In this document: one piece after another, positions 39,407 to 41,674 of the stretch
Layout: the number at the start of each line of letters is the position of its first letter
How positions within the stretch are numbered: the first letter of the stretch is position 1
Assembly: GCF_037392515.1 (NCBI RefSeq)
Contig: NC_090285.1
Span: 70,781,515-70,845,514 of the forward strand
DNA length: 64,000 nucleotides
Source of the DNA: Haliotis asinina
Lineage: Eukaryota
Direction: 5' to 3'
The notes under the pieces: model-generated
Database searches by the model: none
What the model was told of the DNA's origin: nothing
Seen by the model: the letters and a program-made list of their open reading frames with translations, nothing else
Position numbers and translations under genes: made by a program

Positions 39407-40060
39407 ATGTACATAACACTTCCAGGAATAACGAGCGGTGAGGCCGTTCAGCTGACGCACGCGATCGATAACACGTCAGGTCAACTCGAAGTCGCACTCT
39501 GCGATATCACCTACCTACCGCAATGGACTAACATTAATATCAGCAACAATAAGCTGTTCGTCAGTGGAACTCGCAGTCAGATAACTGACGGCTACTACAG
39601 TGTGTGCTCTCTAAACGACGAGGTCTTCAAACCCCTGGGAGCCGAACTCAAGATGAACGACTCAAACGGCACAGTGGTGTTAATCAACAACGGAAGAACC
39701 TCATTGAGGCTAGGCCGACCATTAGCGAGGATACTCGGTATGTCTCCTGACGAGATAAAACCAACAACAACCGTCACAGGCACGAAGTTACCCGATCTAG
39801 TACCGTACCGAGAGCTGTACATTCATCTCGATCAGGTGAGCACAACGTACAACATTCAAGGAGGTCACCCTTCCACTATACTGAGAGCAGTGCCGGTGAA
39901 AACTGAGAAATTCAACGACGGTAGAACCGAGTCGTTTTCACCACGGCAGTATAAGAGATTAACCCAGGGCAACATACCTGAGCTGACAATATCGGTGTTA
40001 GATATAAATCATAATCCTGTAAATATAGGATACCTCAGCTTAACACTTCATGTAACATGA
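39407..40060 (+). CDS. Putative single-jelly-roll minor capsid (penton-like) protein, 217 aa
   Basis: Beta-strand-rich with LYIHLD, STILRAVPV, FSPRQYKRL, ELTISVLDINHNPVNIGYLSLTLHV. Family not verifiable by eye. Confidence 0.3.
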   Translation: MYITLPGITSGEAVQLTHAIDNTSGQLEVALCDITYLPQWTNINISNNKLFVSGTRSQITDGYYSVCSLNDEVFKPLGAELKMNDSNGTVVLINNGRTSLRLGRPLARILGMSPDEIKPTTTVTGTKLPDLVPYRELYIHLDQVSTTYNIQGGHPSTILRAVPVKTEKFNDGRTESFSPRQYKRLTQGNIPELTISVLDINHNPVNIGYLSLTLHVT

Positions 40061-40968
40061 CCAGCGCACAAGGGCCCGGAGTGAAAAAATGCGTCAATAT
40101 CGGGATCTCCGACCTTGGAGACACGCGCAGTTTCGACGCTCCCGGAGTAGATGGTAAATCGTACGCCTTGCAACTGAAAAACAACATTTACAAACGCGTT
40201 GAAATCCCCTCCGGTGGAACCCTAAGTGATATGATAGATACCACAAGAGCAACAGTCAACACTAAGTACACCCTTGTCAACACCGGTGATAATAATTGGG
40301 TAATATACCCATCGTTCGGAGGTAAACTGTTCGACTTAGACGATGTTGAGAGCACTACCGTCGCCCGAAACAAGCCATATATGCTCGTCTTCACCGAAGA
40401 TGACAAGTGGGTGTTGTTACCCGATAACAACTGGTTTATCAATATTAGACTCTTCTCCCCCTACGTGTTCACTGATAACAAAGACAACCACCTAAACAAA
40501 GTCGTGAACAATGGAATCCTGCTCGTGGCTTACGTCCCAACTCAGAGACGTAGCATAGTCGTCAGCCCAGTCAACACTATAGCAGCCCACATGCTATCGA
40601 GTAAACCAGCCATACAAAACGTGAAATTGCAGTTGGTGTCTGAATTCGAAGGTGTGGTCACTATACTAGAGGATCTACCGGCAAACTCAACACTGATCAT
40701 CAAAGTCTACCTAGGGGAACCATCGGGGAATGATGTCGAGATCGTGAAGGGGATCAAACTCGGGTGGGTGAAACGACACCAGTATCAAGTTTGCAACGTT
40801 TACGTGCGGGTGGGTGTCGACTCCAAGACCAGTCTGCAGGGGGTCAACGTGATCGTGGAAAACAAGATATCACTAATCAATATCTTCCTGCCTGACAACA
40901 TACACTTCATGGGTATGAAGTTAACCCCTGAATTATTATCAAAAAACCAGTTGGAAATTATATCATAA
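40057..40968 (+). CDS. Fibre/spike-like protein paralogue 1, 303 aa
   Basis: N-terminal DLGDTRSFDAPG, shared with the next gene, then a beta-rich body. Start overlaps the previous stop (ATGA). Confidence 0.35.
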   Translation: MTSAQGPGVKKCVNIGISDLGDTRSFDAPGVDGKSYALQLKNNIYKRVEIPSGGTLSDMIDTTRATVNTKYTLVNTGDNNWVIYPSFGGKLFDLDDVESTTVARNKPYMLVFTEDDKWVLLPDNNWFINIRLFSPYVFTDNKDNHLNKVVNNGILLVAYVPTQRRSIVVSPVNTIAAHMLSSKPAIQNVKLQLVSEFEGVVTILEDLPANSTLIIKVYLGEPSGNDVEIVKGIKLGWVKRHQYQVCNVYVRVGVDSKTSLQGVNVIVENKISLINIFLPDNIHFMGMKLTPELLSKNQLEIIS

Positions 40969-40978
40969 TAGTATAATA

Positions 40979-41674
40979 ATGACCAGTCATCATCCCAACA
41001 CTACGCTTAACGACCTAGGAGATACGGAGGGATTCGATCAGCCTGGTGAGGAAGATGAATTATACGTCCTACACTTCAAAGACAACGTGTACAGACTGGT
41101 GCCGTTATCAGATTTAAAAGAGCCCAAATGGCTGATCAACTTAACACTCGCCTCACCTTATATCACAATAGATACATATACAAAATATGTCACTAAGATT
41201 AGGAACAACGGTATCTGGACCGGGGATTTCATTCCGGAGAGGATATTCATAGCAACTACTGAGACCGCAAAAAATAGGTTAAAGCCTGGAGAAGACAATA
41301 AATTAGCATTTATCAATTATAATCCTAACATAAGTCTTAATACATTCTCCCCTTTCACACTCATCATAGAAGTCTTCTTTGTATTTTTAGGTAATGAAAA
41401 CACCTCAAAAGTACACCAAATTTTACCCGGGGTGTCAATACACTGGTTTGACGAACACACAAACAAATATTGTCGTATTGTTATACAACGGGATACCCAC
41501 GGGGGTCCTATAAACCGCTTAATAAACCTCAGTGGGGTTTTTATTACAACAGGAAATTCTATTAGACTCTCACCTATTACCCTGACTACTAGGATAGAAC
41601 TTGTAGACTTCAAATACATTGAAGGACTATTAAATGAAACCCAATTAAAATATCTTTCAAAATATATATTATAG
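40979..41674 (+). CDS. Fibre/spike-like protein paralogue 2, 231 aa
   Basis: MTS...NDLGDTEGFDQPG...Y.L.FKDN.Y..V...W.IN..L.SPY...D...NNGI, collinear with 40057-40968. Confidence 0.35.
   Translation: MTSHHPNTTLNDLGDTEGFDQPGEEDELYVLHFKDNVYRLVPLSDLKEPKWLINLTLASPYITIDTYTKYVTKIRNNGIWTGDFIPERIFIATTETAKNRLKPGEDNKLAFINYNPNISLNTFSPFTLIIEVFFVFLGNENTSKVHQILPGVSIHWFDEHTNKYCRIVIQRDTHGGPINRLINLSGVFITTGNSIRLSPITLTTRIELVDFKYIEGLLNETQLKYLSKYIL

Follow-up and report, generated by a model that had tools for sequence, protein, structure and literature searches.

A 14.3-kb Polinton/Maverick element within a 64-kb stretch of Haliotis asinina DNA (the window, meaning the whole stretch that was analysed) carries a penton gene followed directly by two tandem paralogous genes, p303 and p231, whose products represent in our view the best candidates for its host-attachment proteins. 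We assign a probability of about 0.45 to the reading that the family to which they belong forms a short fibre or spike at the capsid vertices. The family was previously unannotated. It is a conserved member of the Polinton morphogenesis module, found in mollusc Polintons as well as in free marine Polinton-like contigs, and its proteins are built from copies of a repeat unit of ~35 amino acids (aa) that at the profile level resembles a repeat of phage tail fibres. The three open reading frames (ORFs) of 217, 303 and 231 aa were confirmed, all on the + strand, at the positions given below together with their parts. They are tightly packed: the stop codon of the penton gene overlaps the start codon of p303 (ATGA), 10 nucleotides (nt) separate p303 from p231, and a single nt lies between p231 and the next ORF.

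39407..40060, + strand: penton (vertex, minor capsid) protein, 217 aa, single jelly roll
40057..40968, + strand: fibre-like paralogue 1, p303, 303 aa, the long form
40105..40206, + strand: p303 repeat unit 1, residues 17-50, ISDLGDTRSFDAPGVDGKSYALQLKNNIYKRVEI; unit-1 profile 55.8 bits
40219..40314, + strand: p303 repeat unit 2a, residues 55-86; unit-2 profile 18.7 bits
40327..40425, + strand: p303 repeat unit 2b, residues 91-123, LFDLDDVESTTVARNKPYMLVFTEDDKWVLLPD; unit-2 profile 21.1 bits
40432..40965, + strand: p303 C-terminal domain, residues 126-303; predicted to be beta-rich in a low-confidence model
40979..41674, + strand: fibre-like paralogue 2, p231, 231 aa, the short form
41000-41101, + strand: p231 repeat unit 1, residues 8-41; unit-1 profile 49.8 bits
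41129-41671, + strand: p231 C-terminal domain, residues 51-231; preceded by a vestigial LSDL

Identification of the penton

The 217-aa protein is beta-rich and has a single jelly-roll fold. Its structural matches (scores in brackets) include P1v1 of PBCV-1 (8.3) and the pentons of mavirus (8.3) and Sputnik (7.0), followed by the fowl adenovirus penton (6.8), the EhV-201 penton (6.5) and VP14 of SGIV (5.5), and vertex proteins account for seven of the eight best. A Foldseek search against predicted viral structures returned LO5 of an adomavirus, a 'putative penton' of a MELD virus, minor capsid proteins of mavirus and of nucleocytoplasmic large DNA viruses (NCLDV), and one adenovirus penton. 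The gene lies within 2.5 kb of those for the packaging ATPase (35121-35756) and the candidate major capsid protein (MCP; 35728-36984), and penton, MCP and ATPase genes are also united in one morphogenesis module in the related loci and in L010, a marine contig from Saanich Inlet. No Pfam model matched the protein. Its identification as the Polinton penton, the protein with one jelly roll that occupies the twelve vertices of the capsid, is well supported; the initial annotation had read it as a vertex protein, and the jelly-roll fold and the structural matches to pentons bear this out.

A known class of such pentons is formed by the Polinton PX and virophage minor capsid proteins (Krupovic, Bamford and Koonin 2014, PMC4028283). 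The 217-aa protein shares their fold and role, the likeness being one of fold, and differs from PX in that its gene is placed two genes from that of the candidate MCP, instead of adjoining it or lying one gene away, and it has no Pfam model. Homology between the penton and the p303/p231 family, in the style of P5 and P31 of PRD1, was also considered and rejected, hhalign giving a probability of 0.1% between the two profiles.

p303 and p231 are old paralogues with a conserved N-terminus

Both proteins begin with MTS and contain, in the same order, the motifs [SN]DLGDT[RE][SG]FD[AQ]PG, Y.L..K.N.Y..V, W.IN..L.SPY and NNGI, just as the initial annotation had listed them, and its claim of paralogy was upheld by pairwise comparison (BLASTP E=3e-13 with 27% identity over 210 aa in the C-terminal part, and E=3e-9 in the N-terminal part). 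They are genuine paralogues, conserved at the N-terminus and diverged at the C-terminus. Within a block of 32 N-terminal residues 15 are identical, seven of which are encoded by different synonymous codons, and the nucleotide identity amounts to 61%. The synonymous differences rule out recent gene conversion as the source of the common motif and, together with the nucleotide identity, imply that the motif has been held by selection since an old duplication. Seven residues are near-invariant throughout the family (W126, K148, N151, G153, F197, G232 and W237 in p303 numbering), and p231 retains all of them (W, K, N, G, F, G, W) at 27-30% identity to p303. The tandem pair has been kept in three diverged elements, the one in the window and those represented by L007 and L001, where the start of the second gene can be seen. 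Since related elements carry a single family gene, the duplication is confined to the Haliotis-type lineage.

The N-terminal motif belongs to a repeat unit

The shared N-terminal motif had been taken for a short tail comparable to that by which the adenovirus fibre binds its penton. Conservation in both proteins stands; the motif is not an adenovirus-like short peptide, however, but the first copy of a repeat unit of ~35 aa. In the family alignment unit 1 follows the pattern L-x-D-L-x-D-x-x-G-F-...-G-x-E-...-Y-x-F-x-L-x-x-G-x-Y-K-R-x-E-I, and the segment in the middle of the proteins, with the consensus L-S-D-V-D-x-S-x-A-V-P-x-R-L-H-x-L-A-F-T-G-x-K-W, is a degenerate copy of it, the two being aligned in register by hhalign over 28 columns (P=3e-5). 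A clear extra copy of unit 1 is present in three family members (47.6, 45.7 and 19.9 bits, against 3.8 for the best shuffle). When a unit-2 profile built without Haliotis sequences was used and full-length matches were scored against 1,000 shuffles, p303 gave two full-length matches (21.1 and 18.7 bits; shuffle maximum 8.7) and no unit 2 was found in p231. Unit 2a is an extra copy particular to p303, while unit 2b is the counterpart of the single unit 2 of typical members, so that three units are counted in p303, one in p231 and two in typical members. The profile evidence thus leads to an architecture of one to three units followed by a C-terminal domain of ~175 aa.

Constraint decreases away from the N-terminus

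The mean pairwise identity across the family is 45% in unit 1, 24% in the middle segment and 21-28% in the C-terminal domain. A similar gradient was seen in the dN/dS ratios, for which the closest copy, L007, served as reference (88% amino-acid identity in p303): the value is 0.28 for residues 1-50 of p303, 0.79 for its C-terminal domain and 0.71 overall, as compared to 0.25 for the penton. Residues 51-120 reach 1.19, a figure derived from only 10 substitutions. By Fisher's test the contrast is marginal (conserved versus variable parts, p=0.02; penton versus whole p303, p=0.07). The distal parts of p303 are under weaker constraint than the penton. The ratios do not amount to evidence for the diversifying selection that had been suggested for these genes, that of p303 being below 1 overall and that of its middle region being based on so few substitutions.

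The unit resembles a repeat of phage tail fibres

A tblastn search with a concatemer of three unit-2 sequences matched a 'putative tail protein' of a Brevundimonas phage (E=3e-4, 94% coverage); its other matches were tail-fibre, baseplate or hypothetical phage proteins only, and wherever the tblastn matches are annotated they are tail, tail-fibre or baseplate proteins. The protein of Brevundimonas phage vB_BpoS-Gurke (UTC28368.1) contains at least nine tandem-type units of the form L-x-D-L-x-D-V...G-x-x-L-x-Y-x-x-G-x-W, for example LADLGDVSDTPATAGDYLRFVGGEWV, and matches PHROG tail and tail-fibre families such as PHROG 9729 (tail fiber protein); no Pfam repeat model matches the phage repeat. 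A hidden Markov model (HMM) built from eight phage units alone was searched in 129 family proteins and in 1,290 shuffled sequences. It detected 59 domains of at least 5 bits in the former against one in the latter, where 0.1 would be expected by chance in the family set, and the matches fall exactly on the positions of unit 1 and unit 2. In a comparison of profiles, hhalign aligned unit 2 with the phage unit over 29 of 35 columns (92% probability, P=6e-7) and unit 1 with P=5.6e-5.

The family is a constant part of the capsid module

First homologue searches with the pair returned almost nothing, and two IMG/VR scans and one metagenome scan for wider sampling gave nothing useful. An exhaustive HMMER search uncovered at least 282 family clusters at 50% identity; 296 proteins were retrieved by a profile that drew on translated homologues from related loci, and the full-length members are uniformly 255-325 aa long. 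The nearest related elements are L001, which is a decayed copy from the assembly of Haliotis rubra, and L007, on a Logan contig of short length; remoter ones lie on Mb-scale contigs and in 'metagenome-assembled genomes' (MAGs) of lucinid-clam symbionts.

The initial annotation had proposed a vertex gene followed by genes with a tail. This arrangement holds in 12 of 14 loci, where the family gene stands directly 3' of the penton gene with overlapping or nearly abutting ORFs, but not in L010 and L014. In L002-L006, L009, L012 and L013 the gene order is that of the 420-aa protein (- strand), penton, one family gene and a gene for a transmembrane (TM)/coiled-coil protein. In L010 the family gene sits between the A32 ATPase gene and that of a double-jelly-roll MCP (PF21738, E=5e-58; 4573-5844), with genes for a penton and a TM protein close by, whereas in L014, from Tara Oceans, it is found between the gene for protein-primed PolB (pPolB) and the integrase gene. 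Linkage to a penton or MCP gene amounts to 13 of the 14 loci. The candidate MCP of the window (35728-36984) matches neither PF21738 nor the MCP of L010 (BLASTP E=0.08); a fibre-like family common to elements with very different MCPs suggests an exchange of modules between them.

Three further observations concern these relatives. Proteins P0005, P0013, P0020-P0022, P0027, P0033 and P0066, assigned to 'Candidatus Thiodiazotropha' MAGs, are Polinton penton or fibre-like proteins located on contigs of 1-12 kb, and are most likely derived from mis-binned Polinton DNA of the bivalve host. At 5500-16300 of the Mb-scale ENA contig L002 the capsid module, with MCP, 396-like, 420-like, penton and fibre-like genes, is present in two incomplete copies arranged in tandem, which points to Polintons that were inserted one after another or into one another and have decayed. 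The H. rubra 'ankyrin repeat' proteins P0010 and P0011 open with the Polinton fibre-like N-terminus (L001, QXJH01000396.1, 9995-13320). Domain swapping, by which the N-terminal module would have been joined to ankyrin repeats, was rejected: the decayed H. rubra Polinton has a complete but frameshifted p303 homologue and a second paralogue truncated after ~30 codons, and at least the 478-aa P0010 is a spliced gene-model chimera because the ankyrin ORFs start at least 0.5 kb downstream of the frameshifted Polinton ORF.

A proposed vertex fibre and its alternatives

We favour a model in which p303 and p231 are displayed at the capsid vertices. The N-terminal unit (L-x-D-L-x-D...G...Y-x-F-x-L-x-x-G-x-Y-K-R) would hold the protein on the capsid, with the penton as the most likely site, and would also drive oligomerisation; zero to two further degenerate units would form a short stalk, and the faster-evolving C-terminal domain would be the distal head that contacts the host. 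We infer that the proteins are incorporated into the virion, bind the penton and trimerise, and that a role in receptor binding falls to the C-terminal domain. The element would make a long form (p303, three units) and a short form (p231, one unit) whose heads are 27% identical, and two heads could confer two attachment specificities, as is the case for adenoviruses with two fibre genes.

A number of observations weigh against this model. Both proteins are short and lack a long shaft, a coiled coil and a collagen repeat, and to our knowledge no virion has ever been observed for any animal Polinton. An AlphaFold2 prediction of p303 from a 27-sequence alignment (Neff ~2.4) failed (pLDDT 37, pTM 0.24). 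Neither Pfam (E<=1) nor PHROG gave a match for 31 diverse family members, hmmsearch of the family profiles A1, A5 and A6 against all PDB sequences produced no meaningful match, and the Pfam models of adenovirus fibre shaft, knob and avian fibre matched neither the family nor the window proteins. Adjacency to the penton gene is not universal, L010 and L014 being the exceptions, and the copy in the window may be inactive because of frameshifts in the pPolB gene and in the TM gene downstream of p231. As to the phage repeat, the E-value of 3e-4 was obtained with an artificial concatemer, and a natural single-sequence query found the same top phage protein only at E=0.1. The scores of the phage-unit HMM do not exceed 12 bits and reflect a likeness at the motif level among family members that are not independent observations, and with p303 and p231 of the window alone the HMM gave no significant result. 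The phage units weakly match the N-terminus and the foldon hairpin of T4 fibritin (E=0.06), the only solved structures to which the unit could be related, but fibritin was not retrieved from the PDB by the Polinton unit-1 or unit-2 profiles and a direct link between the Polinton units and fibritin or its foldon was accordingly discarded. In view of the low scores, the non-independence of the sequences and the weak single-sequence match we speak of a supported resemblance between the Polinton and phage repeats and not of a demonstrated homology; it may reflect common descent or convergence.

The explanation that competes best with a fibre, although we consider it unlikely, is that the family is a structural protein of the virion with another function, such as a cement or minor capsid protein, a linker between vertex and membrane comparable to P16 of PRD1, or an internal protein. 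In that case the N-terminal unit would serve for attachment to the MCP, penton or neighbouring membrane proteins, and the protein would not project outward. Such a role would suit a small protein without recognisable shaft or knob whose gene is constant in the capsid module, adjoins that of the MCP in L010 and is always accompanied by homologues of the TM/coiled-coil proteins p396, p420 and p88/p137. However, the combination of a conserved N-terminus with a fast-evolving C-terminal domain fits an exposed protein facing the host better than a buried one, as do the variable number of repeats and the retention of diverging duplicates, and the repeat resembles those of phage tail fibres and not any capsid cement protein.

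A different proposition, compatible with any of the other readings and in our opinion rather improbable, is that p303 alone is functional while p231 is a decaying duplicate that has stayed open by chance in a young insertion. The loss of unit 2, and hence of the stalk units, from p231 would be in line with decay, and no close full-length homologue of p231 was found among 5.8 billion proteins; furthermore, the second gene of H. rubra is truncated and the element in the window is frameshifted elsewhere. Against this, the ORF of 231 codons is intact, unit 1 is well preserved (49.8 bits), all near-invariant residues are kept despite only 27-30% identity to p303, and the start of the second gene is conserved in three diverged elements. 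Divergence of this extent without a stop codon implies long selection.

Still less probable is a non-structural function, in which the family would share no more than transcription with the capsid genes and would serve as a chaperone of assembly, as a scaffold or in the manipulation of the host. The L014 locus, where the gene lies away from the capsid genes between those of pPolB and integrase, would agree with this, and so would the fact that no structural homology was obtained. Yet the gene is linked to penton or MCP in the remaining 13 of 14 loci, the proteins matched by the repeat are tail proteins of phage virions, and no enzymatic or regulatory domain was detected in the family by Pfam. 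Finally, the possibility that the likeness between the ORFs, or the ORFs themselves, arose by chance from composition or repeats is negligible given the BLASTP E-value of 3e-13, hundreds of homologues of the same architecture and purifying selection on the N-terminus.

A vertex fibre thus remains the reading that we prefer. A more far-reaching version, in which a large clade of Polintons of metazoans (molluscs), together with their free marine relatives, uses the family as its receptor-binding fibre at the vertex and the family stems from a phage repeat module, seems to us doubtful in its entirety, but its consequences are worth stating. The repeat module would have been inherited from, or exchanged with, tailed phages, and the host range would be tuned by the number of units and by duplication and divergence of the head domain. 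On this view two fibre types would be known for the first time from animal Polintons, those of Haliotis, and the family would provide a tangible starting point at the molecular level for understanding the infection of cells by Polintons and their passage between species. Cell entry of Polintons and their movement between species is an open question, to which the family contributes a specific candidate for an attachment protein. Should the fibre reading be wrong, the family would still be a conserved component of the morphogenesis module of Polintons and Polinton-like viruses (PLVs) that is worth annotating.

Comparison with known attachment proteins

Human adenoviruses HAdV-40/41 have a long and a short fibre, and fowl adenoviruses have fibre-1 and fibre-2. 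The fowl adenovirus case has been cited in work on PLVs (PMC12220804). Like the adenoviral penton base and fibre genes, the Polinton genes comprise one for a single-jelly-roll vertex protein beside one or two others, and p303 and p231 recall the two-fibre adenoviruses in having a conserved N-terminus and diverged distal parts and in differing in the number of repeat units, so that a long and a short form result. The differences are nevertheless considerable. Neither sequence contains a tail peptide of the FNPVYPY type on direct reading, nor were 15-residue triple beta-spiral repeats or a knob detected with Pfam; the conserved N-terminal element is a folded-looking unit of ~35 aa and not a short peptide, and the proteins, with 231-303 aa, are much shorter than adenovirus fibres. 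Trimer formation and penton binding, which are features of the adenovirus fibre, would have to apply here by analogy. The 217-aa protein in turn lacks the large insertion domain of the adenovirus penton.

PRD1 has a vertex composed of the penton P31, the trimeric spike P5, the receptor-binding P2 and the membrane linker P16, and the N-terminal domain of P5 resembles P31. The Polinton likewise has a small jelly-roll penton accompanied by two different proteins, which would be attached at the vertex, and its module also encodes membrane proteins. No sequence relation to the PRD1 proteins was found, p303 and p231 have no collagen-like shaft, and, in contrast to P5 and P31, their family is unrelated to the penton at the profile level (0.1%).

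With the repeat proteins of phage tail fibres the Polinton units share the repeat pattern, the length of ~35 aa and the tandem use. The phage proteins are giants of more than 2,000 aa, unlike those of the Polintons, and have discoidin domains between their units; the faint likeness to T4 fibritin is confined to the phage units.

Nematode Polintons appear to use a fusogen instead of a fibre. Phage-like fibres have been described in protist PLVs (PMC12220804) and in oomycete Polintons (10.1101/2023.08.22.554363), and 'Fiber' genes in some MELD viruses (10.1101/697771); these proteins with phage fibre modules are thought to attach to the penton (PMC12220804; 10.1101/2023.08.22.554363; 10.1101/697771). 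Like them, p303 and p231 are candidate attachment proteins of Polinton-related elements that resemble phage fibre modules. Those fibres are large, however, and recognised by a Peptidase_S74 chaperone, collagen repeats, PTR, a beta-helix or the N-terminus of avian adenovirus fibres, whereas the p303/p231 family is small, matches none of these domains and is found in Polintons of metazoans (molluscs). Should a fibre be what it forms, it would be a new family in a known role, since phage-like fibres of Polintons and PLVs have already been described. Mollusc Polintons, those of H. rufescens included, have been shown with the corresponding ORFs left unannotated (10.1101/2023.08.22.554363).

The host element and its other genes

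The surrounding element is a Polinton/Maverick, as the initial annotation had assumed, and has the features of this class: terminal inverted repeats (TIRs), a 5-bp target-site duplication, pPolB, an rve-family integrase, a packaging ATPase and capsid genes, among them an MCP candidate with a weak Pfam hit. Its termini, read from the sequence, are 5'-AG...CT-3'.

28352-28356: left target-site duplication, TCTCG, directly before the left TIR (read from the sequence)
28357..28717: left TIR, starting 5'-AGTAGTATAGGG; 361 nt, 98% complementary to 42330-42690 (repeat search)
28490..29458, - strand: rve-family integrase, 322 aa; Pfam rve E=1.7e-10
29439..33172, - strand: pPolB; Pfam Rho_N 1.7e-12, Endonuclease_7 1.2e-5, DNA_pol_B_2 weak
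33495-33920, - strand: 141-aa ORF, conserved in related elements
34383-35060, - strand: 225-aa ORF, conserved in related elements
35121..35756, - strand: A32/FtsK-type genome-packaging ATPase, 211 aa; Pfam Pox_A32 E=1.5e-8
35728..36984, - strand: candidate MCP, 418 aa; Pfam Capsid_N weak, E=0.017
36984..38174, + strand: 396-aa coiled-coil protein with C-terminal hydrophobic segments; weak Pfam hits of coiled-coil type
38152..39414, - strand: 420-aa protein with a C-terminal hydrophobic anchor, transcribed divergently from the penton gene
41676..42297, + strand: TM + coiled-coil protein gene, frameshifted into ORFs of 88 aa and 137 aa
42330..42690: right TIR, ending ...CCCTATACTACT-3'; 361 nt, 98% complementary to the left TIR
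42336-42557: 73-aa ORF within the right TIR, a copy of the integrase C-terminus
42691-42695: right target-site duplication, TCTCG, directly after the right TIR (read from the sequence)

In pPolB, Pfam identified a Rho_N/SAP-like domain at the N-terminus and an insert resembling Endonuclease VII, and homologous pieces of the protein are present in the related loci. Its gene is split into two ORFs of 700 aa and 571 aa that overlap at 31070-31154, which points to a frameshift. The nuclease insert may correspond to that reported in mollusc pPolB2 (10.1101/2023.08.22.554363). The 73-aa ORF and the integrase C-terminus match one and the same frame and place in the related loci, and the duplication of this sequence means that the integrase gene extends with its 3' end into the TIR. 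Either the 141-aa or the 225-aa ORF may encode the expected adenovirus-like cysteine maturation protease, candidates for which Pfam and PDB sequence searches gave no match.

The candidate MCP is kept at the same position in all related elements. Between its gene and that of the penton lie the genes of the 396-aa protein, with a long coiled coil, and of the 420-aa protein, for which a Pfam search gave no match. Homologues of the former were found in L001-L006, L009 and L012, those of the latter at the same position in L001-L006, L009, L012 and L013. In the close relative L007 the 420-aa protein is far more diverged than the adjoining penton (95%), a contrast that hints at mosaicism.

The reading frame of the TM/coiled-coil gene downstream of p231 shifts by 1 nt in a run of G near 41880, as read directly from the frames; the shift may reflect a true mutation or an error in sequencing the homopolymer. 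In the relatives the gene is a single ORF of ~155-235 aa (L006, 11512-11976; L009, 10846-11367; L010, 744-1451; L012, 4330-4953), and in every related element, the free marine contig included, it lies beside or near the fibre-like gene. Together with the 396-aa and 420-aa proteins, such TM proteins suggest a particle with an internal membrane or an envelope.

Immediately past the right TIR there is a 31-bp tandem repeat of 4.9 copies (42879-43029), and beyond it, at 43934-46876, a non-LTR retrotransposon with ORFs for an Exo_endo_phos endonuclease and an RVT_1 reverse transcriptase.

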